In this document: positions 3,938-62,751 of the stretch, in pieces
Layout: each line of letters starts with the position of its first letter
Numbering within the stretch: the stretch's first letter is position 1
NCBI GenBank assembly: GCA_965219085.1
Contig: OZ244720.1
Span: forward strand, 2,336,001 to 2,400,000
Direction of reading: 5' to 3'
Source of the DNA: Dehalococcoidia bacterium
Lineage (GTDB): Bacteria > Chloroflexota > Dehalococcoidia > UBA2979
DNA: 64,000 nt
The notes under the pieces: generated by a model
What the model saw: only the letters and a program-made list of their open reading frames with translations
What the model was told of the DNA's origin: nothing
Database searches by the model: none
Program-made: the position numbers and the translations under genes

Positions 3938-4049
3938 CCGGGGCCCCCCACCACGCTCACCGGCTCGATCCTGCGCGGCGCGAGTATACAGGGACGTGAT
4001 CTCGGCTGGGGAAAATCGCGTCTGCCGCAAATCGGTTATTTCTCGATTG

Positions 4050-23303: not shown

Positions 23304-23325
23304 GAGGCCCGCTTGCGCGGGCCTC
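23304..23325 (-). terminator. Hairpin terminator after the cta operon
   Basis: Minus strand GAGGCCCGC-GCAA-GCGGGCCTC then TT; 9-bp stem with GNRA loop, between the convergent ctaG and ctaF. Confidence 0.55.
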
Positions 23326-23361
23326 GAGCGTGGGTGAGCCGTCCCCCCGTGGGGGAGTGGA

Positions 23362-23682
23362 CTAGATGATGTCGGTGATGTCCGTCCAGAAGAGCGCGAT
23401 CAGCGCGATGAGGACGCCGCCGGCGAGCACGAACGATCCGGTGAACACCTGGCTGAGCAGCCGGTGCTCGAACCGCAGGTGCATGTAGAACGCCACCACG
23501 ATCACGAACTTGACCGCCGAAAGGATGATCAGGAGCGGGATCAGGGCGTTGCCGAGGTCCACCCAGAGCGAGGCGGCCAACTCGGCGACGGTGATGGCGG
23601 TGAGGAGGACGCCGATCCAGACGTACTGCATCGGCTGGAGGCCATGTTCCTCCTCGACGCCTTGATCGCTATGCATGCTCAT
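23362..23682 (-). CDS. ctaF: Cytochrome c oxidase subunit IV
   Basis: Three TM helices; 'KFVIVVAFYMHLRFE'. Confidence 0.9.
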   Translation of the reverse strand: MSMHSDQGVEEEHGLQPMQYVWIGVLLTAITVAELAASLWVDLGNALIPLLIILSAVKFVIVVAFYMHLRFEHRLLSQVFTGSFVLAGGVLIALIALFWTDITDII

Positions 23683-23710
23683 CGAGCGCTCCCGTCCCTG
23701 CTCGGCGCGC

Positions 23711-24421
23711 TTACGCCGGGATGAGGTACAGGACCGTGAAGATCACGATCCAGACGATGTCGACGAAGTGCCAGTACAGCCCCGCGATCTCCACCTGGAA
23801 GCCCGGCTCGGAGCCCAGCCCCCGGCGGCGGAATGAACCCAGCAGCAGCGAGCCGAGGATGATCACGCCGACCGCGACGTGGGTGCCGTGGAATCCCGTC
23901 AGCACGAAGAACGAGGCTCCGAACTGGCTTGTTTCGAGCGTCAGCCCTTCCTGCCCGAACGTGCGGAACTCGAAGACCTGGTAGCCGAGGAACATCACGC
24001 CCAGCAGCATCGTGACGAGCAGCCAGAACTTCATCATCATCGGCCGGTTGTGCTGCGCCCCGTAGACCGCGAGCACCATGGCGACACTGCTCATGAGCAG
24101 GACGAACGTGCTCTGCGAGGTCAGCGGGATGTCGAAGATGCCCTCGCAGACCGAGATGCCGGCCTCGGCTGCCGGGTGGCAGAAGTGCGAAGCCACCTCG
24201 CTGACATCGCCGCTGGCGATGGCCGCCTCGAGGGTCGCGGTGACGACGTGGGTCTCGCTCGGGAAGGGCGGGAGGGTGATCTCGCCCTTGAAGATCAGGT
24301 AGGTCGCGATTAGCGAGCCGAAGAAGAGGCACTCCGAGCCGAGGAAGATCCACATCAGGAGCTTCCGGCTGTCGATGCCAGTGGTGGTGTGGTGCTCTAC
24401 TTGGTGTTCGGCTGCTGCCAC
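23711..24421 (-). CDS. ctaE: Cytochrome c oxidase subunit III
   Basis: 'WIFLGSECLFF', 'TFVLLMSS', 'LTGFHGTHV', 'LYWHFVDIVW'. Confidence 0.95.
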   Translation of the reverse strand: MAAAEHQVEHHTTTGIDSRKLLMWIFLGSECLFFGSLIATYLIFKGEITLPPFPSETHVVTATLEAAIASGDVSEVASHFCHPAAEAGISVCEGIFDIPLTSQSTFVLLMSSVAMVLAVYGAQHNRPMMMKFWLLVTMLLGVMFLGYQVFEFRTFGQEGLTLETSQFGASFFVLTGFHGTHVAVGVIILGSLLLGSFRRRGLGSEPGFQVEIAGLYWHFVDIVWIVIFTVLYLIPA

Positions 24422-24441
24422 GAGGTGTTCCGTTCCCGGTT

Positions 24442-26241
<1,800 letters not shown>

Positions 26242-26282
26242 CTTCGGTGCCTTCCGCTACGGCCGCCTGGTGCGGCGCGCGG

Positions 26283-27362
26283 CTACTTCAGCTCGCTGAG
26301 GTACTGGGCGATAGCCCGGATGTCCTCGGCTGAGATCTCTTCCTCGAACGGCCGCATGAACCGGAGCGGCTGGTCCTTGTCGGTGATGTCGTTCTCGGGG
26401 TTGATGCCCGGCTTGACCTCACCAGGGTTGCTGATCCACTTCACGAGGTTCTCGATGTTGTTGTCGAGGATACCCGCGGCGATGGTCTGGCGGCTGCCGA
26501 CGTGCGTCAGGTCCGGGCCGAAGTCGGCGATGCTCGCCGCCGTGCCGCGGACAGTGTGGCACTCCGCGCAGCGCACCACGAACAGGGTCGCGCCGAGTTG
26601 GCCAAGCTCCGAGGTGGGCTCCACGGCGTCGGCGAGCTCGTTCGCTGCCCACGCGTCGAACTCCTCGGCGGTGTGCACGAAGACGCGGAAGCGCATGTTG
26701 GCATGCGAGGCGCCGCAGAACTCGAAGCACTGCCCGAGGAAGGCGCCCTCCTGCACGGTGTTCGGTGTGAACCACAGGTCGTTCTCGTGGCCGGGGACCA
26801 TGTCCACCTTGCCGACCAGCTGCGGAATCCAGAACGAGTGGATGACGTCGTCGGAGTAGAGCTTCACGTGGACCGGCTGGTCCACCTCGAGGTGCAGCTC
26901 GTTGGCGGTGGTGATGCCGAGCTCGGGGTACTTGAACTCGAACCACCACTGCTTGCCGGTCGCCTCGACCACCATCGAGCCCTCGGGCGGAGAGTCTGTG
27001 GTGTCGGCGATGACTTGCCAGGTGGGGACGAGCATCACGAGCACGATGGCGACGGGGATGATCGTCCACAGCACCTCGAGCCGGGTGTTGCCGTGGATCT
27101 GGTTCGCCACACGGCCAGGGCGCTCGCGGTAGCGCACGGCGAGCCAGAGCGTGATGAGCATGATCGCGACGAACACGAACATGGAGAGCCAGAAGACGAT
27201 CTCGTAGACGCCCTGGATGGCCTCCGCGACGTCAGACTTCGGCTCGATGGTGGTCAGTGGGTCGGAGCAGGAGGCGAGCAGCACCATCGGTGCCGCCGCT
27301 ACGAGGATCAGTAGTCGACGCGCCCAACGTTGGGAGATGCGCAACAGGGCCTCCTCGCTCAC
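26283..27362 (-). CDS. ctaC: Cytochrome c oxidase subunit II with fused cytochrome c (caa3), probable lipoprotein
   Basis: Lipobox 'LLASC'; 'QWWF', CuA 'DVIHSF...CFEFCGASHANM'; heme c 'CAECH', 'GPDLTH'. Start approximate (GTG 27362). Confidence 0.95.
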   Translation of the reverse strand: MSEEALLRISQRWARRLLILVAAAPMVLLASCSDPLTTIEPKSDVAEAIQGVYEIVFWLSMFVFVAIMLITLWLAVRYRERPGRVANQIHGNTRLEVLWTIIPVAIVLVMLVPTWQVIADTTDSPPEGSMVVEATGKQWWFEFKYPELGITTANELHLEVDQPVHVKLYSDDVIHSFWIPQLVGKVDMVPGHENDLWFTPNTVQEGAFLGQCFEFCGASHANMRFRVFVHTAEEFDAWAANELADAVEPTSELGQLGATLFVVRCAECHTVRGTAASIADFGPDLTHVGSRQTIAAGILDNNIENLVKWISNPGEVKPGINPENDITDKDQPLRFMRPFEEEISAEDIRAIAQYLSELK

Positions 27363-27586
27363 TCGGCACGCGCCCCGATACCCGTGCGCCGGTGCGCCGG
27401 TGCGCCGGTATCGTAACGCCGCGTGGCGGGCTCCGCACGGCGCAGTCCCCCTGCGCCTCGGTACGATTATCATCGGGCCGATCAGTGGTCAAGGCCGCCG
27501 ACCCCCTGATCCGGGGATCCGAGCCCCTCCCGACCGCCCTGATCGTTGATCGCCGCACCCGCGGCGACTAGCCTCAATGACGGCTT

Positions 27587-28144
27587 ATGGCAACGATCCT
27601 CCGCGCAATCCAGGGCCGTCTGCTCGTGATCGCCACCGGCGCGGGCCTGCTCGCGCTCCTCGCGACGCTCGTCATCGCCATGACCCGGGATGTCGGCCAG
27701 GAACGCCTCGGCGACGTGGACCCCGGCATCGAGCGGGTCCGCGCGTTCACGCTCCCCACCCTCGACGGCGAGCGCGTGGCCATCGCCGACTACGCCGACG
27801 GGCCGGTCTTCGTCTACTTCTGGGCGTCGTGGTGCGCCCCGTGCGCGAGCGAGGCGCCGCTGATCGAGCGGCTCTGGGCCGAGTACGAACCGCAGGGCTA
27901 CACCTTCATCGGGATCAACATCCTCGACAGCGAGCGTGGCGCGCGGGAGTTCGTCGAACGGCACGGGCTGACCTTCCCGATGATGATCGATGGGGACGGC
28001 GACGTGTATTTTGACTTCGGCGTGAACGGCGTCCCCGAAGCCTACTTCCTCCAGCCGGGCCTCGACGTGACGCGCAAGTACATCGGCGAGCTCCGAGAGC
28101 AGGACTTCCGCGACATGCTCGAAGATATCCGGCCGGTCTCGTGA
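27587..28144 (+). CDS. TlpA/ResA/CcmG-type thiol-disulfide oxidoreductase
   Basis: N-terminal TM helix, 'FWASWCAPC', 'GVPEAYF'. Confidence 0.9.
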   Translation: MATILRAIQGRLLVIATGAGLLALLATLVIAMTRDVGQERLGDVDPGIERVRAFTLPTLDGERVAIADYADGPVFVYFWASWCAPCASEAPLIERLWAEYEPQGYTFIGINILDSERGAREFVERHGLTFPMMIDGDGDVYFDFGVNGVPEAYFLQPGLDVTRKYIGELREQDFRDMLEDIRPVS

Positions 28145-28608
28145 ACCGCGCAGCGCTCGGACGGCTGCTCGGGAGCACGCGCGCGCGGCTCGTCGCCGTG
28201 CTCGCCCTCGCGACGATCGTGATCGGCGTGCTCGCCGTGCAGGCCGCGGACTCGTCGCTGTCCTACTACGTCACGCCCGAGGAGTTCGCGCAGGAGATCG
28301 ACACCGAGGGTCGGCGCTGGCGCGTCGGCGGGCGCGTGGTCGACGGCTCGATCGTCGAGGACGAGCGCGGCCGCCCCATCGCGTGGGTGGTCGAGGGCGA
28401 GCAGGGTGACCGGATGGAGATCACCATCGCCGACGCCGGCGTGGTGATCCCCGACCTGTTCAGCCCGCGCGCCTTCGTCGTCGTGGAGGGCGTGGCGGCC
28501 GCGGCGGGCCGCCTCGAGGCGTCGAGCGTGATCGTGCGGCACGAGCCGGAGTTCGTGACGGACCCCGACGACGCCTCGATCGCCGCGCCCGATTCCTCCG
28601 AGGAGTGA
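28141..28608 (+). CDS. ccmE: Heme chaperone CcmE
   Basis: 'SYYVTPEE', 'RVGGRVVDGSI', 'IPDLF...VVVEG', heme-binding 'RHEPEF'. Confidence 0.88.
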   Translation: MNRAALGRLLGSTRARLVAVLALATIVIGVLAVQAADSSLSYYVTPEEFAQEIDTEGRRWRVGGRVVDGSIVEDERGRPIAWVVEGEQGDRMEITIADAGVVIPDLFSPRAFVVVEGVAAAAGRLEASSVIVRHEPEFVTDPDDASIAAPDSSEE

Positions 28609-30617
28609 TGAACCTCGTCGCCACGCTCGGCGCGTCGGCGCTGCTGACGGCGCTGGCAGCGTCGTTGTTCGCCGTCGGCGCAGCGGTGTTGGGCCAGCGA
28701 CTCGCGCGACCATCGCTGATCGCGGCGGCGCGGCGCGCCATCGTCGTCACCGCGGCGCTGACGACGCTCGCGATTGGTGTGGTCGCGTACGCGCTGCTGA
28801 CGGACGACTTCTCGATCGCCCACGTCGTGGCGGTGTCGTCGCGCGACATGCTGCCGCACATGAAGTGGGCCGCGCTCTACAGCGGGCAGCCCGGCTCGTT
28901 GCTGTTCTGGACGTGGCTGCTCTCGCTCATGCTCGCGGCGTTTGCGCTGCTCACTGTGCCGCGCATCCCCTGGGGGGCCGCACACGCCACGGCGGCAAGC
29001 GGCGCGATCCTCGCGGCGTTCCTCGTGCCGGCCGTCTTCCTCGCCTCACCGTTCGAGGTGAGCGCGGTCACACCCGAGGATGGGGTGGGGCTCAACCCGC
29101 TGCTCGTCGACCCGGCGATGCTGGTGCACCCGCCGTTCATGCTCGCCGGGCTCGTGAGCACCGCCGTGCCGTTCGCGCTGGGCGCGGCGGCGCTGCTCTC
29201 CGGGCGCATCGACGGACGCTGGATCCGCGCCGTGCGCCCGTGGGCGCTCTGGTCGTGGCTGCTGCTCAGCGTCGGTAACATCCTCGGCGCGTGGTGGGCG
29301 TACACGACGCTCGGGTGGGGCGGCTTCTGGGGCTGGGACCCGGTCGAGAACTCGGCGATCCTGCCGCTCCTGCCGATGACCGCCTTCGTGCACTCGCTCA
29401 TGGTCCAGGAGCGCCGGGGGATGCTGAAGCTGTGGAACCTCGCGCTCGTCTTCGCCGCCTTCGCGCTCGCCGTGTTCGGCACCTTCAACGTCCGCAGCGG
29501 CCTCGTGGCCTCCGTGCATTCGTTCGCGCTGTCCGACGTGGGCCCGTACTTCCTCGTGGTGTTGGCGGCCACGCTCGTGGCGTCGATCGTGCTGCTGGGC
29601 TGGCGCAGCGGGCGGCTGCGCGCGGACCACGACTTCGATTCGCTCGCGTCACGGGAGAGCTCACTCATCGTCAACAACTACCTGTTCACGATCGGAGCGC
29701 TCGTCATCCTCGGCGCGACGCTCTTCCCGGTGTTCTCGGAACTCGTCGAGGGCGCCCGCATCACGGTCTCCGCGCCGTTCTACAACGACGTCATCGGGCC
29801 GCTCGTGATCGCGCTGCTCGCGCTCATCGCCGTCGGGACCGTGCTGCCGTGGCGGCGCGCGGCGGGCACGACGCTGATCCGTCGCTTCCGCGTCCCGCTC
29901 GCCGTGCTCGCCGGCAGCGCCGCGGTGCTCGCCGCACTCGGCATGCACGACCGCTTCGCGCTCGCCGCGGTCAGCGTCTCGATCGCGCTCGGCTACGTCA
30001 CGCTGCGCGAGTTCGCGATCGGCGCGCGCGGGCGGCGCGCGGCTGGGGGGCGCAGTTGGCCCGCGGCGCTGCTCGCGCTGTTCAGGCGCGACCGACGCCG
30101 CTACGGCGGGTACCTCGTGCACCTCGGGGTGGCGATGATGGCGGTCGCCGCCGTCAGCGCGAACGTCTACCAGGCGCAGTCGCGCGGCATCGTCGCGCCG
30201 GGCGCGTCGTTCGAGGTCGGCGGCTACAGCGTGGAGTTCGAGGGCCTGCGCGAGCGCGCGGGCACGGCGAACGGCATCGAGACCGAGGTGCTCGCGTCGC
30301 TCACCGTGCGCCGCGACGGCGAGACGGTCACCACGCTCGCGCCTGGTCGGCGCTTCTTCCGCAACTTCCCCGACCAGCCGATGGCGATGGTCGATGTCGA
30401 CACGGGGTGGCGTGAGGACATCTACGTGTTCCTGCAGGGATGGGACGAGGAGGGCGTGGCGGAGATCAACGCATTCGTGAACCCGCTCATGGCGTGGCTG
30501 TGGATCGGTGCGGGTGTCTACGTCCTCGGCGGCATCGTCGTGTTCGCCCCGCAGCCCGCGCGCGAGCGGGCGCCCGTGCCGGCCGTGCCCCCCTCGGGCG
30601 CGACGCGGAGTGCGTGA
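28605..30617 (+). CDS. ccmF: Cytochrome c heme lyase CcmF
   Basis: 'GQPGSLLFW', 'GLNPLL', 'HPP', 'WAYTTLGWGGFWGWDPVENS', 'RSG...SVHSF', 'HLG', 'NPLMAWLW'. Confidence 0.96.
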   Translation: MMNLVATLGASALLTALAASLFAVGAAVLGQRLARPSLIAAARRAIVVTAALTTLAIGVVAYALLTDDFSIAHVVAVSSRDMLPHMKWAALYSGQPGSLLFWTWLLSLMLAAFALLTVPRIPWGAAHATAASGAILAAFLVPAVFLASPFEVSAVTPEDGVGLNPLLVDPAMLVHPPFMLAGLVSTAVPFALGAAALLSGRIDGRWIRAVRPWALWSWLLLSVGNILGAWWAYTTLGWGGFWGWDPVENSAILPLLPMTAFVHSLMVQERRGMLKLWNLALVFAAFALAVFGTFNVRSGLVASVHSFALSDVGPYFLVVLAATLVASIVLLGWRSGRLRADHDFDSLASRESSLIVNNYLFTIGALVILGATLFPVFSELVEGARITVSAPFYNDVIGPLVIALLALIAVGTVLPWRRAAGTTLIRRFRVPLAVLAGSAAVLAALGMHDRFALAAVSVSIALGYVTLREFAIGARGRRAAGGRSWPAALLALFRRDRRRYGGYLVHLGVAMMAVAAVSANVYQAQSRGIVAPGASFEVGGYSVEFEGLRERAGTANGIETEVLASLTVRRDGETVTTLAPGRRFFRNFPDQPMAMVDVDTGWREDIYVFLQGWDEEGVAEINAFVNPLMAWLWIGAGVYVLGGIVVFAPQPARERAPVPAVPPSGATRSA

Positions 30618-30619
30618 CG

Positions 30620-31135
30620 ATGCACGTGGCGCTCCGCGTCGTCCTCGGAGCGCTTGCCGCGGCGGTCGTCGCTGCCCTCGCTGCCACATGGGCGACCGGC
30701 TCCCTCGACACGCTCAGGCGCGCGGATGCGCAGGACTTCGAGGCGCAGGCGCTGCAGATCGAGCAGCAGCTGATGTGCCCGCGCTGCATCAACGTCCGCC
30801 TCGACCACTGCGAGCTGACGATCTGCCAGGACATGCGGGCCGAGATCCGCGACCAGCTCGCGGCCGGGCGCGGCGGCGACGACATCCTGCTCTACTTCTC
30901 GGACCGCTTCGGCGACGTGGTGCTCGCCGAATTGCCGCGCGAGGGCTTCAATCTCTGGCTCTTCGGCTGGGTGGGCGGCTCGATCCTGCTCGTCGCGGTC
31001 CTCGGCGCAGCGGCCCTGTGGCGGATGCGGCGCGGCGCGACGCTCGCACCGGCGGGAGCGGGCGGCGCCCTCGACGCGTCCGAGGAGCGCTGGCTGGACG
31101 AGCAGCTGCGCAGGACGGCGGAGAGGCGCGACTGA
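30620..31135 (+). CDS. ccmH: CcmH (CcmL)-type cytochrome c biogenesis protein
   Basis: 'LMCPRC...DMRAEIRDQL...YFSDRFGDVVLAELP..GFN' plus TM helix; ATG 30620. Confidence 0.88.
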   Translation: MHVALRVVLGALAAAVVAALAATWATGSLDTLRRADAQDFEAQALQIEQQLMCPRCINVRLDHCELTICQDMRAEIRDQLAAGRGGDDILLYFSDRFGDVVLAELPREGFNLWLFGWVGGSILLVAVLGAAALWRMRRGATLAPAGAGGALDASEERWLDEQLRRTAERRD

Positions 31136-31419
31136 TGGAGTGGCTGGTGCTCGCGCTGTTCGCCGCCCTCGCCGCGGCGGTCATCGGCCTGCCGCTCCTG
31201 CGCCCCCGCGAGGCCGCGCTCGAGGGCGTTGACGGCGCCGAGCTGGTCGAGGAGCGCCGCACCCTGGTCGCCGAACTGCGCGAGCTCGACGACGACGTGG
31301 CGAGCGGCCGCATCTCCGCCGACGAGCGGCGCGATGGCCGGCGCGCCCTCGCGCCACGTCTGCGCGCCGTCACCGAGGCGCTGCGCGACGCGGGCCTCGA
31401 TCCGCGCGGCGGCGCGTGA
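31135..31419 (+). CDS. Small membrane protein resembling the CcmI N-terminus
   Basis: 'MEWLVLALF...LPLLRP...ELRELDDDVASGRISADE'; TGATG overlap with ccmH. Confidence 0.7.
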   Translation: MEWLVLALFAALAAAVIGLPLLRPREAALEGVDGAELVEERRTLVAELRELDDDVASGRISADERRDGRRALAPRLRAVTEALRDAGLDPRGGA

Positions 31420-32420
31420 CCCTGTTCGCGCGCGCCCTCGTCGCATGCGCCGCCGCGGTGTGCGCGCTGTCCGGCGGGCTCGCCTCGGCGCAGCAGCCCG
31501 AGGGGCGCATCACGGGCGTCGTGCGCGTCGGCGACTCGGGGCCCGCGACCGAGCCGGTCACGGTGCAGCTCTTCGTGCTCGGCGATGCTGGCGTGCAGTC
31601 GGCTCAGGAGACGACCACCGAGGCGGGACGGTTCGCGTTTGACGTGGGGCCCGACATCGCGCTCTCGTACGTCGTGCGCGCGGTGTATGACGGCGTGCAG
31701 TACCTCGCGCCGCCCGTACTGCTGTCGCGCGAGCTCCCGACCGCCGAGGTCGAGATCGTGGTGTACGCGAAGACGACCGAGCCGCCTCCGCTGACCATCG
31801 AGCGCACGACGGTGACCGTGCTGGGCCTCGACCGGACGGACGCGCGGATCACGTTCGTGCGAGCGGACGAGGTGCGCAATCCGTCGGACCGCATCTTCGT
31901 CGGAGACGCCGAAGGCGTGACGCTGCGCATCCCACTCCCCGACGGCGCGGTCGTCGCCGAGAGCGGCGTCGAGGGCGACACGCGTGTCGAGGGCGGCACG
32001 CTGGTGGTCGGCACGGCGCTCCGCCCGGGCGTGACGACGGTCGTCAGCCGGTACGTCGTCGGCTACGATCGGGCGCGCGACGCGTACGCGCTGCGCGTCA
32101 CCGCGCCGCTGCCCACCGATCACATGGAGGTCGCCGTGCCGACGCGATTCGCGGACGACATCCGCCCGCTCGCCGGCTCCATCGACGCCGGCACGCGCGA
32201 CGACGGCGGCGAGCCCACCACGCTCGTCGCGCGCGAGGGCGCTGCGGGGCCCGGGGAGTCGGTGAGTGTGCTCCTCGATGGCCTCGCGGGGCGCAACGCG
32301 CCGAACCCGCTCACCGGCAGGGGCGGCGCGGCGGTCGCCGTCGCGCTGGCGCTCGCGATCATCGGCGGAGGCGCGGCGGTACTGCACCTCGCCGGCCGCC
32401 GCGACGGGGCGACGGCGTGA
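31416..32420 (+). CDS. Exported beta-rich, C-terminally membrane-anchored protein in the ccm operon
   Basis: Signal peptide (ASA-Q), 'GRITGVV...GRFAF...YVVRAVYDGVQY' (carboxypeptidase-regulatory-like repeat), C-terminal TM helix. Confidence 0.7.
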   Translation: MTLFARALVACAAAVCALSGGLASAQQPEGRITGVVRVGDSGPATEPVTVQLFVLGDAGVQSAQETTTEAGRFAFDVGPDIALSYVVRAVYDGVQYLAPPVLLSRELPTAEVEIVVYAKTTEPPPLTIERTTVTVLGLDRTDARITFVRADEVRNPSDRIFVGDAEGVTLRIPLPDGAVVAESGVEGDTRVEGGTLVVGTALRPGVTTVVSRYVVGYDRARDAYALRVTAPLPTDHMEVAVPTRFADDIRPLAGSIDAGTRDDGGEPTTLVAREGAAGPGESVSVLLDGLAGRNAPNPLTGRGGAAVAVALALAIIGGGAAVLHLAGRRDGATA

Positions 32421-33073
32421 TCGAGGCGCGCGGGCTCACCCGGCGCTTCGGCGGCGCCGTCGCGCTGGACCGCGCGAGCTTCGAGGTGCCCGACGGCGCG
32501 AAGGCCGCGCTCTTCGGCGCGAACGGCGCGGGCAAGACCACGCTCCTCGCCGTGCTCTCGACGCTCCTCGCGCCGACCGAGGGCGACGCCACCGTCGCGG
32601 GCCACGACCTGCGCAACGCGCCCGGCGATGTGCGCGCCTCGATCGGCGTGCTGACGCATCGCCCGATGCTCTACGAGGAGCTGACGCCGCGCGAGAACCT
32701 CGAGTTCTTCGCGCGCCTCTACGGCGTCGAGGGCGCGGCCGCACGCGTCGAGGAGCTGCTGCGGCGGGTGGGGCTGTGGACGCGCCGCGACGAGCAGGTC
32801 GCCGTGCTGTCGCACGGCTTCCACCAGCGACTCGCGATCGCCCGCGTGGTGCTGCACCGCCCTCACGTGCTGCTGCTCGACGAGCCGGAGACGGGCCTCG
32901 ACCGCGACGGGCTGGCGCTGCTCGACGAGCTCGTACTGCGCGCGCCCGGCGTCACCGTGCTCGCCGCCACCCACCAGCGCGAGCGCGCCGAGGACTGGGC
33001 GGAACTGGTCATCGAGCTCGACCGCGGGCGCGTCCTCGAATCCGCCCCGGAGCCGGCGAGGGTGGGCGTGTGA
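32417..33073 (+). CDS. ccmA: Heme ABC exporter ATPase CcmA
   Basis: 'GANGAGKTT', 'LTPRENL', 'LSHGFHQR', 'LLLDEP'; directly upstream of ccmB. Confidence 0.9.
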   Translation: MIEARGLTRRFGGAVALDRASFEVPDGAKAALFGANGAGKTTLLAVLSTLLAPTEGDATVAGHDLRNAPGDVRASIGVLTHRPMLYEELTPRENLEFFARLYGVEGAAARVEELLRRVGLWTRRDEQVAVLSHGFHQRLAIARVVLHRPHVLLLDEPETGLDRDGLALLDELVLRAPGVTVLAATHQRERAEDWAELVIELDRGRVLESAPEPARVGV

Positions 33074-33726
33074 GCGCCGCCGGTGCCGTGCTCGCCAAGG
33101 ATCTGCGCCTGCTGTGGCGGCAGCGCGCCGGGTGGCTCTCGGCCGGCGTCTTCGCCGCGATCAGCGTGCTCACCTACTCGTTCGCGCTCGACCTCGCGAC
33201 GGGCGAGGTGCGGCCGCTGCTGCCGGGCGTGCTGTGGGTGACGTTCCTGTTCGCCGGGATCATCGCGAGCGGGCGCTCGTTCGCCGCTGAGATGGAGCAA
33301 GGCACGTTCGACGCGCTGATGGTCGCGCCGGTGTCGCGCACGGCGCTCTACGCGGCGAAGGTGGCGAGCAACCTGCTGGCCCTGCTGCTGATCGAACTGG
33401 CCGTACTGGTGCTGGCGACTATCCTCTTCAATACCTCGCTGCTCACCCTGGAGTTGATCGCGATCATGGCCCTCGGCACCGTCGGCTACGTCAGCCTCAC
33501 GACGCTGCTCTCCACGCTCGGCAGCCGCGTGCGCTCGCGCGAGGTGCTGATGCCGGTCCTGGCGCTGCCGCTCCTCGTGCCGCTGCTCATCGCCGCCGTG
33601 CGCGCGACGGGCGGTGCGCTCGACCTGCCGACGGGCGGCTACTCGTGGATCCTGCTGCTCGCGGGCTTCACCGTCTGGAGCGCGCTGGGCAGCGCGCTGC
33701 TGTTCCCGCTGGTGGCCGAGCAATGA
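33070..33726 (+). CDS. ccmB: Heme exporter permease CcmB
   Basis: 'KDLR', 'PGVLWV', 'SFAAEMEQGT', 'REVLMPVLALPLLVP'. Confidence 0.92.
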   Translation: MSAAGAVLAKDLRLLWRQRAGWLSAGVFAAISVLTYSFALDLATGEVRPLLPGVLWVTFLFAGIIASGRSFAAEMEQGTFDALMVAPVSRTALYAAKVASNLLALLLIELAVLVLATILFNTSLLTLELIAIMALGTVGYVSLTTLLSTLGSRVRSREVLMPVLALPLLVPLLIAAVRATGGALDLPTGGYSWILLLAGFTVWSALGSALLFPLVAEQ

Positions 33727-34550
33727 GCACCGGCGCCCCCTCGGTCACCTCCGTGGCCGCAGGCGGCCCCTCGGGCCTCCTGGGCGCCCTGTGGGCGGTC
33801 GTGGGGCCGGTGTACAGAGCGCGCTGGACGGTGCTGCCTCCGCTCACCGGCGTCGCGATGCTGGCGATGCTCGTCGGCGCGGTCGTGGTCGCGCCGCGCG
33901 AGGCGATCGAGGGCGAGGTGCAGCGCATCTTCTACATCCACGTGCCCTCCGCGATCGCGGCCTACCTCGCGTACTCCGTCGTCTTCGTATGCTCGATCCT
34001 CGTGCTCTGGCGCAGCGACCTGCGCTTCGACGCGGTCGCGCGGGCGGCGGCGACCGTCGGGGTGCTGTTCACGGCGCTGACGCTGGCGACGGGCGCGATC
34101 TGGGGCAAGCCGGTCTGGGGCACGTGGTGGGCGTGGGACGCGCGCCTCACGAGCACCCTCGTGCTGCTGCTCATCTACAGCGGCTACCTGCTCGCGCGCA
34201 GCCTCTCCGACGCGACGGACGTGCGCGCCGCGCGCTACGCGGCGGTGTTCGCGATCATAGGCGGCGCCGACATCCCGATCATCAACATGTCGGTGCGCTG
34301 GTGGCGCACCCTCCACCCCGATCCCATCGTCACGAGGGTCCTCGGCGACCAGGCGTTGCCGACCTCGATGCTGCTGGTGCTGATGCTGGGCATGGCGGCG
34401 GTCATGCTGCTCACGCTCTGGCTGCTCTCGCTGCGCGCGGAGACCGAGCGCATCGGCGTCGAGGCCGCCGAGCTGCGCGCCCACGTCGACCGCATCGAGG
34501 CGGGATCGACGGGTCGTGCGCCGGCGCTGCCGGGGACGGGCGGGACGTAG
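33723..34550 (+). CDS. ccmC: Heme exporter CcmC
   Basis: 'RIFYIHVP', WWD motif 'WGKPVWGTWWAWDARLT', 'WWRTLHP'. Confidence 0.95.
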   Translation: MSTGAPSVTSVAAGGPSGLLGALWAVVGPVYRARWTVLPPLTGVAMLAMLVGAVVVAPREAIEGEVQRIFYIHVPSAIAAYLAYSVVFVCSILVLWRSDLRFDAVARAAATVGVLFTALTLATGAIWGKPVWGTWWAWDARLTSTLVLLLIYSGYLLARSLSDATDVRAARYAAVFAIIGGADIPIINMSVRWWRTLHPDPIVTRVLGDQALPTSMLLVLMLGMAAVMLLTLWLLSLRAETERIGVEAAELRAHVDRIEAGSTGRAPALPGTGGT

Positions 34551-34732
34551 TGGACTACCTCGAGTTCCTGTTCGCGGGGTTCGCGGTGTTCTGGGCGGGC
34601 CTGTTCATCTACCTGCTGTGGCTACAGGCGCGGCTGCGCAGCGTGCAGCGCGAGCTGGAGACGCTCAAGGAGCGCCTCGACGAGCAGGAGGCCGAGCAGC
34701 GGGCGGGATCGGTCGCACCGCCGGCCACGTGA
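34550..34732 (+). CDS. ccmD: CcmD
   Basis: 60 aa; TM helix 'FLFAGFAVFWAGLFIYLLWL' plus charged helix, directly after ccmC. Confidence 0.8.
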   Translation: MDYLEFLFAGFAVFWAGLFIYLLWLQARLRSVQRELETLKERLDEQEAEQRAGSVAPPAT

Positions 34733-34818
34733 GCGTGTGCCGCGAGGCGTCTGCCACAGCGCGTGACGAGGCTGAGCGGTACGATGCATGGAACCTCGCC
34801 GGCACACAGGAGCAGCGA

Positions 34819-35767
34819 GTGACGCGTTACCAGGCACTGGCCGTGACGACCGTCGGCGCGACGCTCGTGCTGATCACCATCGGCGCGATCGTGCGCACGA
34901 CAGGCTCCGGTCTCGGCTGCCCGGACTGGCCGCTGTGCCACGGCCAGCTCCTGCCGCCCGCCGAGCGCACCGCGATCATCGAATACACGCACCGCTCGGC
35001 CGCCGCCATCGTGGGGCTGCTGATCGTCGCCACCGCGGCCGTCGCGCTGCTGCAGCGGCGAGGCGACGCGGTCGTGCGCAACCTCGCGATTGCGTCCGTC
35101 GTGCTGCTCGCCGTGCAGGCGTGGCTCGGCAAGGAGACCGTGGAGCGCGAGCTGCCGCCCGAGATCGTGACGGTGCACCTCGGGGCGGCGCTGACGCTGC
35201 TGGCCATGCTCAGCGCGCTCACCGTGTTCGCGTTCTACGGCCCGGAGCGGCGTCGCATCGAGAGCCGTGAGCGCGCGTCGTTCGTGCGATTGGCGACGGT
35301 GACGTCTGCGATCCTGCTGGTCATCCTCCTCGGCGGCTCCTACGTGGTCGGCTCCGACTCCACGACCGCATGCACGACGTGGCCCGGCTGCCTGCAGGCG
35401 CCGATACCGTTCGTCGAGGGCGTGCTGGAGCAGCACATCCACTGGGCGCACCGCCTGAGCACGCTCGTCGGCCTCGGCGCCGTGGGGTTCGTCGCGCTGA
35501 GCGCGACAGAGCTGCGAGGGCCGCTTGCAGAGCGGCTACAGGCCGCGTCGATGGGGCTGCTGGGGCTCTACGGCCTCCAGATGCTGATCGGCGCGGCGAA
35601 CATCTGGACCACGTTCTCCGACGTCGTGCGCGCCTCGCACCTCGCCCTGGGTGCGTCGATCTGGGCGCTCGCGGTGCTCATCGTCGTCGCCGCGGCCTAC
35701 CAGCCCGGTGAGGCGACGCAAGAGGCCGAGTCGCCGCGGCCGGCGGGCGATCGACGGGAGCCGGCGC

Positions 35768-35775
<8 letters not shown>
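34819..35775 (+). CDS. ctaA: Heme A synthase (CtaA/COX15)
   Basis: 'GSGLGCPDWPLCHG', 'EYTHR', 'VHL', 'HWAHR', 'SHL'. Confidence 0.92.
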
Positions 35776-36664
<889 letters not shown>

Positions 36665-36667: not shown

Positions 36668-37513
36668 CTAGCCTTCGACCTCGAGCACGCGCAGGAGGAC
36701 GGACCCAGCGGGGGCCCGCACCTCCACCTCGTCGCCCGGCACGTGGTCGATGACCGCGCTGCCGACGGGCGACTCGACCGAGATCTTGCCGTCGGCCGGG
36801 TCGACCTCGCTGGGGCTCACGAGCTGGAACGTCTGCTCGCGGTCCATGCTGAGGTTCAACACCTTCACGGTGGAGCCGACGTTGGCGCGTCCGTGCTTGG
36901 TCTCCGGGTCGATGATCACGGCATGGCGCAGCTGGTCCTCGATCGAGCGGATCCGCGCCTCGAGATGGGCCTGCTGATCGCGGGCGGCGTCGAGAGGCGC
37001 GTTCTCGCGGAAGTCCTTGTCGGCCATGGCCGCGCGGAGCTCACTGGCGATCTGAGGGCGGCGCGCCTTCAGCCCCTCGAGCTCCTGTTCGAGGGCGGCG
37101 ACGCCCTCGATCGTCACGTAGTAGGCCTTTCCGCCGAGCTCGGCCGCCGCGCCGGCGCCGCCGCGTGCTCCGCCCGCGCGCTCTCCGAGGCGCAGGTGAG
37201 GCACGAGGTTCTCCTCCGTGAAGGCCAGGCGTGACGCATAGGCGAGGAACGCGCGGAGCGGTTCGATCTGGGCTGCGGCCGCCTCGTCGAGCTCGCTGCT
37301 CTCAGTATCGTCGTCGGCGCCGCCGAGCGCGTCGGGGAAGCGCTCACGCAGGTACGCGTCGATCTCCTCGCCAGTGAGCTTGCCCATCTCACGCTCGGCA
37401 CCGACCCACTCCACGAAGCGCTCAATCTCGGGGCGCTCGTCACGGGCCTTCTCGGGCTCGATTGCGTTAAGGAAGTGTGCGCTGGCGTTGCCGGCGCTGA
37501 TAGCCTCGGCCAT
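36668..37513 (-). CDS. greA: Transcription elongation factor GreA with a ~130-aa N-terminal extension
   Basis: C-terminal 'YYVTIEG...RPQIASEL...DKDFRENAPLDAAR...GSTV...LVSPSEVDP..GKISVESPVG'. Confidence 0.85.
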   Translation of the reverse strand: MAEAISAGNASAHFLNAIEPEKARDERPEIERFVEWVGAEREMGKLTGEEIDAYLRERFPDALGGADDDTESSELDEAAAAQIEPLRAFLAYASRLAFTEENLVPHLRLGERAGGARGGAGAAAELGGKAYYVTIEGVAALEQELEGLKARRPQIASELRAAMADKDFRENAPLDAARDQQAHLEARIRSIEDQLRHAVIIDPETKHGRANVGSTVKVLNLSMDREQTFQLVSPSEVDPADGKISVESPVGSAVIDHVPGDEVEVRAPAGSVLLRVLEVEG

Positions 37514-54375: not shown

Positions 54376-54849
54376 GTGATGGAAGAGCACGTACTCGTCA
54401 CACGCGAAGGCATCGAAAAGCTCAAGCAGGAGTTGACCGTGCTGCGCACCAACGGCCGCGCCGAGGTGGCCGCGGCCATCCACGAGGCGCAGGAACTCGG
54501 CACCGCCCAGATCGACGGCCAATACGAAGACGCCAAGAACCGCCAGGCGTTCCTCGAGGGCCGCATCCTCGAGATCGAGAACATGCTCGAACGAGCCGAG
54601 GTGATCGACGAGGAGGCGGCGCACCGCTCGCGCGAGGTGCGCATCGGCTCGACAGTGACGGTGAAGATGCCGAGCGGCGCCGAGCAGGACTTCCAGCTCG
54701 TCGGCCCCGCCGAGGCGAATCCCTCCGAGGGCCGCATCAGCCACGAGTCGCCGGTGGGCCGGGCGTTGCTCGGCAAGAGGCGGAATGACAAAGTGGACGT
54801 AAGCACGCCCGGCGGCAACGCCACCATGACCGTCGTTTCCGTCCGCTAG
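54376..54849 (+). CDS. GreA/GreB-family factor lacking the canonical catalytic acidic residues
   Basis: 'VTREGIEKLKQEL...RAEVAAAIHEAQELG-TAQIDGQY-EDAKNRQAFLEGRI...IGSTV...LVGPAEANP..GRISHESPVGRALLG'; upstream of lysS. Confidence 0.88.
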   Translation: MMEEHVLVTREGIEKLKQELTVLRTNGRAEVAAAIHEAQELGTAQIDGQYEDAKNRQAFLEGRILEIENMLERAEVIDEEAAHRSREVRIGSTVTVKMPSGAEQDFQLVGPAEANPSEGRISHESPVGRALLGKRRNDKVDVSTPGGNATMTVVSVR

Positions 54850-59535: not shown

Positions 59536-59715
59536 ATGCTGTTCGGGATGATGCTCGGACTCGTCCTGGGCGCCGCGGCGGTGCTGCTCATCGAGCAGTG
59601 GCTGCGCGCCGAGTTGGTCGACTGGCCCGGCGCGCCGAGGCGGCTGAGTGGCGGGAGTCACCTCGGTGGCCGCGGCCGGGCCGTTGGGTCGCTGCACCGG
59701 CGGTGGTGGTCGTAG
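59536..59715 (+). CDS. Small single-TM protein (59 aa), putatively SOS-inducible
   Basis: MLFGMMLGLVLGAAAVLLIEQWLRAELVDWPGAPRRLSGGSHLGGRGRAVGSLHRRWWS*; G-rich RBS upstream; first ORF behind the promoter above. Confidence 0.6.
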   Translation: MLFGMMLGLVLGAAAVLLIEQWLRAELVDWPGAPRRLSGGSHLGGRGRAVGSLHRRWWS

Positions 59716-59749: not shown

Positions 59750-60325
59750 GTGACGAGCGACGCCAGTACCACCGGCACCGCGGACGACGCGCTGAGCGCG
59801 CGCCCGACGAGGCTCGTGCGGCTGCTCTGGGACGCCTTCGACGAACTCGAACGCGTCGCCGGGGCGCTGCCGACGCCCGGCCAGGGCCGTGCGATCGGGC
59901 GGCTCAACGCCGGCAGCTGGATCGTCGCGCACGTGGCGCAGCAGCAGGACGCGTACTGGTGCACCGGCGCGCAGGGTCTCGAGCCCGACGCGTGGCTCGC
60001 AGGCCTCGAGGTCGGCTTCGGCTCGGAGCCCTCGGTGCCGGACTACCGCGAGGCACTCGACGCGTTCGCACATATCCGCGCCCGCGCGATCCCGTACCTG
60101 CGCACGCTCCGCGACGAGGACCTCGACGCGGTCACGGAGGCCTCGGACGGGTCGGGGCGCGCGCAGACGGTGGGCGACCTGCTGGTGCGCGCCGTCGCGC
60201 ACGTCTTCGTGCACACGGGCGAGCTCGCGACGATCGCCTCGCTCGTCGGAGCGCCTGACCTCGGGGCGCCTGGTCGGCTCACGCACTCGACAGCGCCACC
60301 GCCTGGCGCGGCGGGCAACGAATAG
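59750..60325 (+). CDS. DinB/YfiT-superfamily (thiol transferase-like) protein
   Basis: His triad 'WIVAHVAQQQDAYW...AHVFVHTGEL'. Confidence 0.85.
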   Translation: MTSDASTTGTADDALSARPTRLVRLLWDAFDELERVAGALPTPGQGRAIGRLNAGSWIVAHVAQQQDAYWCTGAQGLEPDAWLAGLEVGFGSEPSVPDYREALDAFAHIRARAIPYLRTLRDEDLDAVTEASDGSGRAQTVGDLLVRAVAHVFVHTGELATIASLVGAPDLGAPGRLTHSTAPPPGAAGNE

Positions 60326-60376: not shown

Positions 60377-61651
60377 CTAGACTTCCCGGACGAGCATCCC
60401 CGTGGGCTGGCGACGCCAACTGCGGAACTTCGCGTTCTTGATGCCGGCCGCCATCGCATAGTCGCGTGCGCGACGGATGAGGCCGGACGGCACGTAGATG
60501 TAGAGCGGCGCTTCGCCGTTCTCCAGGGGCGCCCACACCAGCTCTGCCTGCTGCCGCGTGACCGTCTCGCGGGTCTCGACCTGCGCGACGATGACCGGAC
60601 GGTTGCGCGGGTGCTCGACGACGACGATGTCGGGGAAGACCTGCGAGGTGGAGGCGCCGCCCGCCGTGAACTCCAGCGCCATCGTCGGCGTCGGCAGGTT
60701 CGTATACGTGCGGTACTCCGGGTGCGCCTCGTTCGGGTACTCGAAGCGGTCACGCGCGAGCTGGCGCACGACGACCTCGATCTCGAACTGGCGGGACTCC
60801 TCGCTGCGCCGCCACGGGGTACCCGCCTCGCGCCAGTCCATGACCGCGCGCTCGTGCTTGGCCGCGAACAGCCGCATGTCCTTGCCCTGCCCGTACAGGA
60901 ACAGCAGCAGAGCGAGCGGGGCGACGAGGATGGCGATCACGACGCCGAACGTGGAGGGACCGTCGACGCCCTCGAGGAGGAACTGGAGGTTCCCGACGTT
61001 GACGTCGCCGAAGCGGATGTTGTCGAGGACATCCCAGACCCCGGCGCCGCTGAAGGTCGGGCCCGGCGTGATGAAGATCGCCGCCAGCGAAACCATCAGC
61101 GCGATGAAGGCGACGAAGCTGACGGGCGACGGCAACTTGTACTGGTTCACGGCTGGGCCCGACATGTGCGGCGCCACGGCCTCGACCTGTCCGCCCCCGG
61201 CGGGAACGGGCGGGGGCGCTGCGGCGGCTGCCACCGCGGGAGCCTCCTCGGCGGGCTCGGCTTCGGCTTCGGCGGGCGCCTCAGCTTCAGCGGGGGCCTC
61301 GGCGGCCGCGGGCTCCGGCTCCGGCGCCGCCTCCTCGGCGGGCTCGGGCGCCGGCGGCGCGGCTGCGGGCGCTCCGCCGCCACCGACCTGCGAGCGGGCC
61401 GCCGTGGGGTCGTCGAACCACAGCTCGTTGATGGCGGTGAAGTGTGCCTGGTCGTCCGGCAGGTCGGGCTCGTCGAAGATCGCGTCGACGGGGCATGCGG
61501 GTTCGCACGCGCCGCAGTCGATGCAGGCCACCGGGTCGATGTAGAGCATCCGGTCTTCGCCTTCTTCGAAGTGGATGCAGTCGACCGGGCAGACCTCGAC
61601 GCAGGACTGGTCCTGCACGTCGATGCACGGTTGGGTGATGACGAACGTCAC
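60377..61651 (-). CDS. Ferredoxin - Pro/Ala/Glu linker - 2TM - PD-(D/E)XK-like fusion protein
   Basis: GTG 61651 (GGAGGG RBS); 7Fe/8Fe ferredoxin 'CIDVQDQSCVEVCPVDC...CIDCGACEPACP'; two hydrophobic helices; C-terminal 'FPDIVVV...VIVAQVET...W...LYIYVP'. Confidence 0.85.
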   Translation of the reverse strand: MTFVITQPCIDVQDQSCVEVCPVDCIHFEEGEDRMLYIDPVACIDCGACEPACPVDAIFDEPDLPDDQAHFTAINELWFDDPTAARSQVGGGGAPAAAPPAPEPAEEAAPEPEPAAAEAPAEAEAPAEAEAEPAEEAPAVAAAAAPPPVPAGGGQVEAVAPHMSGPAVNQYKLPSPVSFVAFIALMVSLAAIFITPGPTFSGAGVWDVLDNIRFGDVNVGNLQFLLEGVDGPSTFGVVIAILVAPLALLLFLYGQGKDMRLFAAKHERAVMDWREAGTPWRRSEESRQFEIEVVVRQLARDRFEYPNEAHPEYRTYTNLPTPTMALEFTAGGASTSQVFPDIVVVEHPRNRPVIVAQVETRETVTRQQAELVWAPLENGEAPLYIYVPSGLIRRARDYAMAAGIKNAKFRSWRRQPTGMLVREV

Positions 61652-62095
61652 GCGCTGCTCTCCCTCCAGTGAGGGGATGGCTCTCGCCTGCTTCGCGCGC
61701 AATCGTATCCGCGCGCTTCGCGAGCGTCTACGCCACCCGGGCTGCGATGTGCCTCGTCGTCGGTGAGGAGACGCCGCGAGGTGCTCGCGACGGCTCCCCG
61801 CCGGAGCCCGAATCCGTGTTTTCGTCTCCGCATCGGGCTCCTCGCCGGCCCCCGATGCGCCGATCGACGCGCCCGGCCGGGCGATTGCGCAGGCCCCCCA
61901 CTACAGGTCGAGGGCTACAGGTGGTAGAACATGTGCGACCGCGCTCGCGGGAGCGCGGTACTACGGGAGGCACGCTGCAGTGACATTCGTCATCACCCAA
62001 CCCTGCATCGAGGTCCGCGATCAGTCCTGTGTCGAGGTGTGTCCCGTCGACTGCATCCACTTCGAAGAAGGCGAAGACCGGATGCTCTACATCGA
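61536..62095. repeat. Perfect 50-bp inverted repeat (61536-61585 / 62046-62095) inside the two ferredoxin domains
   Basis: GTCGACTGCATCCACTTCGAAGAAGGCGAAGACCGGATGCTCTACATCGA is identical in both genes, starting at codon 23 of each. Confidence 0.9.
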
Positions 62096-62537
62096 GCCCG
62101 TCGTCTGCATCGACTGCGGCGCGTGCGAGCCCGCATGCCCGGTCAGCGCCATCTACGACGAGGCTGACGTACCCGATGACCAGGCGTTCTTCACGGAGCT
62201 CAACGTGCTCTGGTACACCGAGCCCGGTACCGTCCGCGCGCAGGTCGCCGACATCCCCGCCCTCGAGGGCGCCGAGGAGGCACGCGCCGCCGCGGAGGCG
62301 CGCGCGGCCGCGGAGGCCGCGGTGGCGGAGGCCGAGGCCGCAGCCGCCGATGAGCCCTCGCGCGGGCTCTACAAGTACGGCGAGGGCGGTGGTATCGAGG
62401 GCAAGTGCGTGCTCTGCGGCCAGTACGTCACCAAGGGCGGCGTCATGTTCCGCGCCAAGTCCGTCGCCTGCGCCGACTGCGCTGCCAGGGCCGAGCGCAT
62501 CCGCGACCCGTACCGCCAGGTCGCCGGTCGCCGCTAG
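61980..62537 (+). CDS. Ferredoxin - Ala/Glu helix - C4 zinc-finger fusion protein
   Basis: GGGAGG RBS; same ferredoxin motif; C-terminal 'CVLC-x17-CADC'. Confidence 0.88.
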   Translation: MTFVITQPCIEVRDQSCVEVCPVDCIHFEEGEDRMLYIEPVVCIDCGACEPACPVSAIYDEADVPDDQAFFTELNVLWYTEPGTVRAQVADIPALEGAEEARAAAEARAAAEAAVAEAEAAAADEPSRGLYKYGEGGGIEGKCVLCGQYVTKGGVMFRAKSVACADCAARAERIRDPYRQVAGRR

Positions 62538-62565: not shown

Positions 62566-62751
62566 GTGAACCGCTACGTCGACGAGATGTCGCGTGAAGA
62601 CCTCGTCGAGGAGGTCAAGGATCTGCTGGTGCGCGGCGTGTTCCGCCACGACGAGGTCGCCGACCCGACGATCCTCGGGAGGGACGCGCTGCGCGCGCTC
62701 GTGAAACGCATCCGCCTCCGCATGCTGGTCGAGGGCCGTACGGCCGGCTAG
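62566..62751 (+). CDS. Small hypothetical helical protein (61 aa)
   Basis: VNRYVDEMSREDLVEEVKDLLVRGVFRHDEVADPTILGRDALRALVKRIRLRMLVEGRTAG*; normal codon bias. Confidence 0.6.
   Translation: MNRYVDEMSREDLVEEVKDLLVRGVFRHDEVADPTILGRDALRALVKRIRLRMLVEGRTAG

Follow-up and report, generated by a model that had tools for sequence, protein, structure and literature searches.

What does a bacterium do with nearly the same ferredoxin module at the start of two neighbouring, divergent genes that then continue into quite different proteins? This question is raised by a locus in a 64,000-nt window (the whole stretch of DNA analysed here, whose positions are used throughout; GC content 70.8%) from an uncultured Chloroflexota, a Dehalococcoidia bacterium. 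We call the two genes A and B. Our analysis indicates that both encode predicted 7Fe-type ferredoxin modules fused to long C-terminal parts, which in A comprise a tether, a two-helix membrane hairpin and a domain with a restriction-endonuclease-like fold, and in B an Ala/Glu-rich segment and a zinc-ribbon tail. The new element is that, by sequence comparison, the nuclease-fold domain of A belongs to a wider unnamed family with fusions to oxidase parts. The reading we favour, which we hold tentatively and with rather less than even confidence, is that A, tethered to the membrane, carries electrons in connection with the aerobic respiratory chain and that B is its soluble paralogue. The locus is arranged as follows.

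60377..61651, minus strand: gene A, 424 aa, stop codon counted in; ferredoxin, tether, two transmembrane (TM) helices, PD-(D/E)xK-fold domain
61652..61979, no strand: divergent intergenic region between genes A and B, 328 bp
61980..62537, plus strand: gene B, 185 aa, stop codon counted in; ferredoxin, Ala/Glu segment, C4 zinc-ribbon

Gene A starts with GTG at 61651, with GGAGGGAG 8 nt upstream, and its stop codon occupies 60377-60379. The open reading frame (ORF) listing also offers a longer form that starts with TTG at 61702, but the GTG is preferred because the 48 aligned homologues begin with M/V-TFVIT. Gene B likewise starts with GTG, preceded by GGGAGG, and the GC content by codon position is gene-like in both (0.72/0.48/0.91 in A and 0.72/0.49/0.89 in B). 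An earlier reading made from the letters of this DNA alone (the sequence-only reading) had claimed two divergent genes 328 bp apart, and both ORFs are indeed present at these positions. Their shared module lies at the divergent ends.

61385..61651, minus strand: A residues 1-89, 7Fe-type (FdxA-like) ferredoxin module, from Fer4/Fer4_7 (Pfam), FdxA_Actino, 2v2k and Foldseek matches
61980..62246, plus strand: B residues 1-89, 7Fe-type ferredoxin module, from Fer4-type Pfam and FdxA_Actino matches and BLASTP against A

Residues 1-89 of the two proteins are identical at 70 of 89 positions (79%; BLASTP E=2e-51), so that the near-identical N-terminal ferredoxins noticed earlier are paralogues, and both carry the Cys motifs first read from them, C-x7-C-x3-CP-x2-C followed by C-x2-C-x2-C-x3-CP. 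At the DNA level the copies are 82% identical and form an inverted repeat with arms at 61274-61651 and 61980-62357; their 89 codons divide into 52 identical ones, 18 with synonymous and 19 with non-synonymous differences. Pfam reports only Fer4-type domains in either protein. The top NCBIfam model is FdxA_Actino, at 106.9 bits for A and 99.7 bits for B, both below the equivalog cut-off of 125, the match being confined to profile positions 2-83 of 107. The closest solved relative is the FdxA of M. smegmatis (PDB 2v2k, E=4.4e-23), and Foldseek places the A ferredoxin among 7Fe ferredoxins with a probability of 1.00 and target-normalised TM-scores of 0.55-0.74. Among the matches listed, the closest free relatives are ferredoxins of 94-95 aa from Dehalococcoidia/Tepidiformaceae metagenome-assembled genomes (MAGs), which are 64-66% identical and have the same FEEG-DRMLYI insertion. 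Taken together, these matches predict a 7Fe [3Fe-4S][4Fe-4S] ferredoxin at the N-terminus of both proteins.

An obvious alternative is that the fusions are an artefact of misassembly, of read-through past a lost stop codon or of erroneous gene calling. Some database entries are in fact split or truncated in the GC-rich tether, for example as a 130-aa and a 285-aa call on one contig. However, a search with A residues 165-424 found 86 protein clusters that match the C-terminal part of A, and 73 of these 86 have Fer4 Pfam domains; all come from Chloroflexi/Chloroflexota MAGs, where they are named 'ferredoxin family protein', 'PreA subunit' or 'hypothetical'. With the window included, 72 of 87 A-family sequences, at identities that go down to about 36%, have the full ferredoxin Cys motif and the full architecture, and the corresponding count in the B family is 17 of 19. 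These sequences stem from many independent assemblies, including megabase contigs, and codon-position GC is gene-like across both genes. Such conservation effectively refutes the artefact, to which we give practically no chance: both architectures recur in relatives, and on these comparisons misassembly or stop-codon loss as their origin can be considered excluded. The objection that the sequence-only reading had itself raised, that the fusions might be missing in relatives, accordingly fails. The remaining 13 of the 86 A-family clusters, which lack Fer4, are short (243-355 aa), and most of them start within the tether or the hairpin. We considered these as true ferredoxin-free variants and did not retain the idea: the majority resemble fragments or alternative gene calls, and three of them, P0077, P0087 and P0088, have unrelated N-terminal stretches.

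Beyond the ferredoxin, three further parts of A can be distinguished.

61142..61384, minus strand: A residues 90-170, Ala/Pro/Glu-rich low-complexity tether, from composition, a model confidence (pLDDT) below 50 and the alignment
60878..61141, minus strand: A residues 171-258, a pair of hydrophobic helices separated by a variable loop, from Kyte-Doolittle analysis and the AlphaFold2 (AF2) model
60380..60859, minus strand: A residues 265-424, juxtamembrane WRRSEESR helix and PD-(D/E)xK-fold domain (P340-D341 ... Q357-V-E359), from the model and Foldseek

The tether comprises 81 residues, of which 30 are Ala, 18 Pro and 14 Glu. The AF2 model shows it as disordered (pLDDT <50), and its length varies among the homologues in an alignment of 48 sequences that are 36-92% identical to the window protein. 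The DNA that encodes it contains, at 61218-61347, imperfect direct repeats of about 43 nt with 65-74% identity, which fit both this length variation and the split gene calls in some assemblies. Hydrophobic segments follow at about residues 174-198 and 231-256 (Kyte-Doolittle windows >1.6), where the AF2 model has helices at 176-194 and 234-265, and in the alignment P174 and S175 are conserved at 90% or more. The segment past the second helix is rich in Arg and Lys (KDMRLFAAKHERAVMDWREAGTPWRRSEESR). Together with the Fe-S module at the N-terminus, this segment leads us to infer that both end domains of A are cytoplasmic.

When the C-terminal domain of A is modelled by itself, from 43 sequences, the prediction is confident (pLDDT 92.8) and has an alpha-beta-beta-beta-alpha-beta topology. 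Foldseek retrieves almost only PD-(D/E)xK-fold proteins with it, led by BstEII (probability 0.98-0.99) and including PaqCI, NucC, Can2, AF1548, YaeQ, XisH, Bax1 and TT1808. On the strength of this model, we assign the domain to a restriction-endonuclease-like fold of an unnamed family. The earlier description of A as a Pro/Ala/Glu linker, two TM helices and a nuclease-like domain therefore holds, since composition, hydrophobicity and the fold model with its Foldseek matches agree. Within the fold, P340-D341 is present, and the (D/E)xK position reads Q357-V-E359, without the Lys. The motif PD...QxE is found in 85 of 87 A-family sequences (window included). In the 48-sequence alignment D341 and E359 are invariant, and so are W273, R274, R282, E284, R287, R302, P306, T315, N318, P340, Q357, E362, R366, Q368, W373, Y386, P388, G390, Y398, R410 and W412.

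This fold makes it necessary to consider a rival explanation, in which the A ferredoxin is a sensor of redox state or O2 that acts as the gate of a PD-(D/E)xK nuclease or phosphodiesterase associated with the membrane, while the B sensor controls a tail that binds nucleic acid or RNA polymerase in the manner of DksA/TraR, so that the two form a redox-responsive pair. Iron-sulfur clusters are found in some nucleases, AddB and Cas4 among them, and for one ferredoxin, A. vinelandii FdI, a regulatory role is known. The rival draws further support from the Foldseek matches (BstEII, then PaqCI, NucC, Can2 and YaeQ), from the almost invariant P-D and E359 and from the many invariant Arg and Trp residues of the domain. 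Yet the Lys of (D/E)xK is missing and the first acidic position is Gln throughout nearly the whole A family, TM-scores to solved nucleases are low (about 0.36-0.40 or less), a Foldseek search with the domain only gives no match at E <1e-3, and no DNA-binding domain is present. The domain has no match in Pfam, NCBIfam or PHROG, a profile of it finds nothing among PDB sequences, and PADLOC gives only noise-level matches on the proteins tested, so that a defence-system role for them was set aside. Membership in Uma2 (PF05685) was also rejected, as hhalign against the Uma2 protein of the window (11063-11620) gives a probability of 0.4% (E=0.17) and there is no PF05685 match. We regard the redox-responsive pair as leaning towards the unlikely, although it keeps a real chance; a further difficulty for it comes from the relatives of the domain.

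A phmmer search with A residues 265-424 against 1.84 billion representatives reveals 116 relatives of the domain at E up to 1e-3, and 37 at E up to 1e-10. Many of them are stand-alone proteins of 130-180 aa with 30-40% identity, and the family occurs mostly in Chloroflexota. No Pfam match was obtained for 24 of 30 relatives scanned, and none of the 30 reaches the cut-off of a nuclease family, the best scores being 19.4 bits for HSDR_N_2 (cut-off 25) and 16.5 for BsuBI_PstI_RE (cut-off 27). The family signature is RFxFP...P..TYxNxP...YPDIVV...EVETxxTV...W...FYLYVPxG. Across the 110 non-query relatives, the D341 position is Asp in 102 of 105 filled positions, position 357 is Glu in 72 of 108 and Gln in 14 of 108, E359 is kept in 90 of 107 and W373 in 103 of 103, and the complete D/E/E triad is found in 67 of 110. 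The site of the family thus appears to be PD...ExE; in the A family an invariant Gln has taken the place of its first Glu. These D...ExE residues speak for the nuclease rival in the wider family, and the Gln of A speaks against it. A segment of the type (L/M)(L/M)P(P/G)x(L/V)R follows the domain in 7 of 111 sequences by a strict pattern, and in more by eye; it may be an amphipathic membrane-binding tail. Stand-alone and fused relatives that bear it include P0111, P0116, P0121, P0123, P0130, P0136 and P0172, with LLPPALRP as an example.

The fusions of this family point towards respiration. In P0172 and P0219 the domain is joined to TM helices and cytochrome c oxidase subunit II; P0219 (672 aa, on 5 contigs) consists of the domain, a TM part, CoxB and two cupredoxins, and passes the CoxB equivalog TIGR02866 with 150.3 bits against a cut-off of 147.7. 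In P0153, P0221 and P0134 the domain is followed instead by two hairpins that start with H-(M/L)-P-P-P-S, while in P0127 TM helices lie N-terminal to the domain. A hidden Markov model (HMM) built from six such hairpins had a single significant non-self match among 8420 ORFs, the C-terminal extension of COX1 in the window itself (E=2e-5), and by blastp a fused hairpin and this extension are 41% identical over 73 aa. Weak matches of the hairpins point in the same direction (Pfam Cyt_c_ox_IV, E=0.007; NCBIfam QoxB C-terminal, E=0.0036). The extension belongs to a large block of aerobic-respiration genes.

22083-27473: caa3-type oxidase region, with CtaG at 22083-23159 and COX4_pro, COX3, COX1 and a COX2-cytochrome c fusion at 23362-27473 on the minus strand
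24445-24594, minus strand: COX1 C-terminal two-helix extension (COX1 residues 550-599), starting HIHMPPPSYYP and homologous to the P0153/P0221/P0134 hairpins
27587-34550: cytochrome c maturation genes, encoding a thioredoxin-like protein, CcmE/F/H and others
34516-36664: CtaA and CtaB, the end of the aerobic-respiration block 22083-36664

Since the window encodes a caa3-type oxidase together with Ccm and haem A synthesis genes, the host appears to be aerobic. The oxidase-subunit fusions are hard to reconcile with a redox-gated nuclease. Because relatives of the domain are fused to oxidase parts, we favour the view that it forms a module at the membrane face which is tied to the aerobic respiratory chain. 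In such a protein the 7Fe ferredoxin would be kept at the cytoplasmic face of the membrane on a flexible leash of about 80 residues, anchored by the two-helix hairpin and the cytoplasmic restriction-endonuclease-like domain, and A could act as a tethered low-potential electron carrier whose ferredoxin remains accessible to a membrane complex. B would be the soluble paralogue, derived by duplication of the A ferredoxin module and addition of the zinc-ribbon tail, and the two ferredoxins may serve one redox partner through the same ferredoxin surface. That A and B share a partner is suggested by the similarity that the B ferredoxin keeps to the A of its own lineage.

Several observations weigh against this proposal. 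The near-invariant acidic pocket formed by D341 and E359 resembles a catalytic or metal site more than it does a surface for docking. A has no oxidase gene as a direct neighbour, the caa3 operon being about 34 kb away, and the conserved neighbours of A, encoding NUDIX, SerS and DinB-type proteins, are uninformative on respiration. The oxidase fusions come from two small lineages only, and the P0219 cluster has 4 members. The TM hairpin of A gives no bridge to the oxidase either: a profile of A residues 150-268 matches A-family proteins only among 8420 ORFs and proteins, finding neither the COX1 extension nor the P0153-type hairpins, so that an oxidase-type origin of the A hairpin is unsupported. 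The electron donor and acceptor of A are, moreover, only hypothetical so far. A stronger form of the same idea, in which the Chloroflexota haem-copper oxidase (super)complex has this domain as a dedicated module facing the cytoplasm and A docks a low-potential ferredoxin at the terminal oxidase, we consider distinctly improbable. In that case the domain would be carried, depending on the lineage, by CoxB, by a subunit-IV-like hairpin protein, by a free protein with an amphipathic tail or by a tethered 7Fe ferredoxin; A would provide a direct electron route from ferredoxin to oxygen, or a redox brake on respiration; and B would be a soluble counterpart whose ferredoxin is held A-like by concerted evolution, both fitting the same partner.

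The part of gene B beyond the ferredoxin, its flanks and the next ORF provide the following features.

61938..61959, plus strand: perfect 8+8 palindrome ACCGCGCT-N6-AGCGCGGT, about 20 nt upstream of the gene B start
62364..62534, plus strand: B residues 129-185, conserved GLYKYGEGGIEGK-CxxC-x17-CxxC tail with AGRR at its end, from the alignment
62566..62751, plus strand: 61-aa ORF downstream of B, with codon-position GC of 0.77/0.35/0.92

The B family was collected as 17 related clusters with B residues 86-185 as the query and one more (P0245) through a search with the tail, giving 18. When the tail alone was searched against longer proteins, 13 of 13 matches were ferredoxin-fused, one of them new. 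The Cys spacing CxxC-x17-CxxC, preceded by an Ala/Glu-rich segment, is present in 17 of 19 B-family sequences (window included), in agreement with the Ala/Glu segment and C4 zinc finger that the sequence-only reading had seen in B. This spacing is typical of DksA/TraR zinc fingers. It favours the redox-responsive pair, together with a weak match to PHROG_54, 'DksA-like zinc-finger protein' (E=0.016); the only other family match, also weak, is to Pfam DZR_2 (E=0.039). On the other side, the Pfam family zf-dskA_traR does not appear among the matches of the tail at E up to 10, and NCBIfam, PDB and phage (tblastn) searches also give nothing meaningful. A DksA/TraR identity is thus a weak lead and not a supported assignment. 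A complex prediction of the A C-terminal domain with B residues 118-185 gave ipSAE values of 0.00 and 0.01 against a mark of 0.32, the partner fold itself being uncertain, so that these values weigh on binding in neither direction.

The sequence-only reading had also placed a shared promoter region between the genes. In the 328-bp gap, no sigma-70-like promoter was found by a scan that was not designed for this phylum and no Rfam element at E up to 1, so that neither could be put forward there, and the fold of the leader is not unusual (z = -0.62). The palindrome at 61938-61959 occurs once in the window, as it does at least once in 26 of 100 shuffles. The same stretch appears as a mis-called N-terminal extension, MCDRA.GSAV, in the B homologues P0090, P0092 and P0094, and for this reason the palindrome seems to be conserved at the DNA level; its role might be that of an operator or of a leader hairpin. 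The 61-aa ORF has no Pfam, NCBIfam or Atlas match. The protein collection contains its exact sequence within a cluster of 10 distinct proteins, all 61 aa long, and two of these lie on contigs equal in length to contigs bearing A and B. It is probably a real small gene.

Whether A and B work together is a separate issue. They may simply be independent paralogous ferredoxin fusions, left adjacent by an inverted local duplication, with separate partners and no joint system. A scan of relatives' genomes, in which 80 loci were kept of at least 600 matching stretches (mostly free FdxA genes), bears on this possibility. Only one of the 80 loci kept, L003 from a low-GC Chloroflexota MAG, has a full-length relative of A (37% identical overall, 49% in the domain). 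Its gene order, NUDIX, serS, small TM ORF, DinB-like gene and gene A, equals that of the window. No B-type gene adjoins A in L003, however, and the B tail is found nowhere in the 80 loci. A without B in the same neighbourhood implies that A is old in the lineage and independent of B, and the A family, with its 86 related clusters, is far larger than that of B with 18. The synonymous differences between the two modules in the window argue against recent gene conversion, and hence against recent homogenisation, and the gap yielded no shared regulatory element in the Rfam search or in the promoter scan, the latter not designed for the phylum; both facts suit independent paralogues.

Against such independence, A and B members occur on contigs of identical length in 8 cases (3553281, 3778751, 59962, 1333259, 946909, 39990, 10357 and 267060 bp), including contigs of only 10,357, 39,990 and 59,962 bp. 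Identical contig sizes in the protein-cluster tables serve here as a proxy, adjacency having been read directly only in the window and in L003, so that the evidence for A and B travelling together is indirect. A second argument comes from a maximum-likelihood (ML) tree of 99 ferredoxin domains, in which the A family is represented by 71 of its 87 rows and the B family by 17 of its 18, with 11 free ferredoxins as outgroups; rows without the N-terminal ferredoxin start motif were left out, as was P0245. In this tree the B ferredoxins fall in two places within the A clade, 14 (B1) with the window-type A (A1) and 3 (B2) with another A subclade (A2). The cluster of P0101, one of these three, branches next to the A protein P0074, and their contigs are of equal length. 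Mean ferredoxin identities are 0.79 for B1-A1 and 0.78 for B2-A2, compared with 0.68 for B1-B2, 0.71 for B1-A2 and 0.69 for B2-A1, although in the alignment the tails of both B groups are clearly homologous. Being nearer to the A of its own lineage than to the other B, each B ferredoxin appears to be held close to that of the resident A, whether through gene conversion or because both are under shared constraints. A point unfavourable to our proposal is that a single clade for B is not rejected by the approximately unbiased (AU) test (p=0.094): polyphyly of the B ferredoxin is not established, and its tracking of A is only suggestive. On balance, we consider wholly independent paralogues unlikely.

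We therefore return to the tethered carrier with a soluble paralogue. The sequence-only reading had proposed a duplicated Fe-S module recruited as a sensor or electron donor for two outputs. Its anatomy, the paralogy of the modules and the recurrence of both architectures stand, while the pair is not obligate and the oxidase-part fusions suggest a respiratory role at least as much as a nuclease output. As this domain family is repeatedly joined to oxidase parts, its fold may have a respiratory use other than as a nuclease, or a nuclease may, unexpectedly, be located at the respiratory membrane. In both cases something would be learnt about the bioenergetics of uncultured aerobic Chloroflexota, of which little is known. 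The A/B pair, in turn, offers a case for how a duplicated redox module stays similar to its parent.

Other genes of the window are recorded here for completeness. The conserved neighbour of A on its 3' side is the following.

59750..60325, plus strand: DinB_2-family gene, convergent with A (Pfam DinB_2, E=1.8e-10), also in L003

Between serS and this gene, both loci have a small hydrophobic ORF, at 59536-59715 in the window (MLFGMMLGLVLGAAAVLLIEQW...) and at 7708-7881 in L003 (MLFTIILSIMFGAAITTLFQQW...), the likeness of the two being judged by eye. Two GreA/GreB-family genes are present, at 36668-37513 and 54376-54849, and the first of these encodes 281 aa with an N-terminal extension of about 130 residues ahead of the GreA domains. 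Further genes of nuclease or mobile type are those for a Uma2-family putative restriction endonuclease (11063-11620), an EcoRII-N domain protein (15297-15827) and a tyrosine recombinase (Phage_integrase, 3026-4093).

With regard to known systems, the parts of A and B have known folds, but neither the architectures nor the domain family of A are described in the literature searched: a full-text search met no description of the ferredoxin/TM/PD-(D/E)xK fusion, of the ferredoxin/zinc-ribbon fusion or of the family, in line with the sequence-only reading, which knew of no such system, and neither architecture matches a curated Pfam or NCBIfam family. The ferredoxin modules share their Cys pattern and fold, over residues 1-80, with FdxA-type 7Fe ferredoxins such as M. 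smegmatis FdxA (2v2k), A. vinelandii FdI and B. schlegelii Fd. Those known members are free proteins of 77-107 aa, whereas the modules of A and B are fused to long C-terminal parts, have a 3-residue insertion (HFEEGEDRMLYI) and score under the NCBIfam equivalog cut-off of the family. A ferredoxin census applied a 200-aa cut-off, by which A would be missed (PMC7039249). The C-terminal domain of A has the alpha-beta-beta-beta-alpha-beta core of the PD-(D/E)xK superfamily (BstEII 9ibq, PaqCI, NucC, YaeQ, TT1808/Uma2), in which P-D opens the second core strand and the strand after it bears an acidic residue. It differs in its motif, which is D...QxE in A and D...ExE in the wider family instead of (D/E)xK, in being membrane-tethered, in its low TM-scores and in lacking sequence-level membership of any curated family. 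The B tail resembles DksA/TraR C4 zinc-finger proteins in placing CxxC-x17-CxxC after a helical Ala/Glu-rich segment.

For the layout of A as a whole, two membrane proteins are the nearest comparisons. RseC of the SoxR-reducing system has an N-terminal Cys-cluster domain and two TM helices with both ends cytoplasmic (PMC11729352), which is the layout of A. The analogy is topological only, since the RseC motif is CX5CX2CX5C rather than that of a two-cluster ferredoxin and RseC has no PD-(D/E)xK domain; nor is the RseC family among the Pfam matches of A at E up to 0.1. Cytochrome c_y has a periplasmic haem c domain and a single anchor, with no extra C-terminal domain. Membrane-anchored cytochrome c_y mediates electron transfer between membrane complexes (PMC7876108), and the Rhodobacter protein combines, as A does, an anchor, a flexible linker and a small redox domain. 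This is a functional analogy only: the two are unrelated, and A would act on the cytoplasmic side. Ferredoxins are usually regarded as small, free and diffusible carriers, and if our reading is true, a conserved tethered 7Fe ferredoxin would be the cytoplasmic-side counterpart of the tethered cytochromes.

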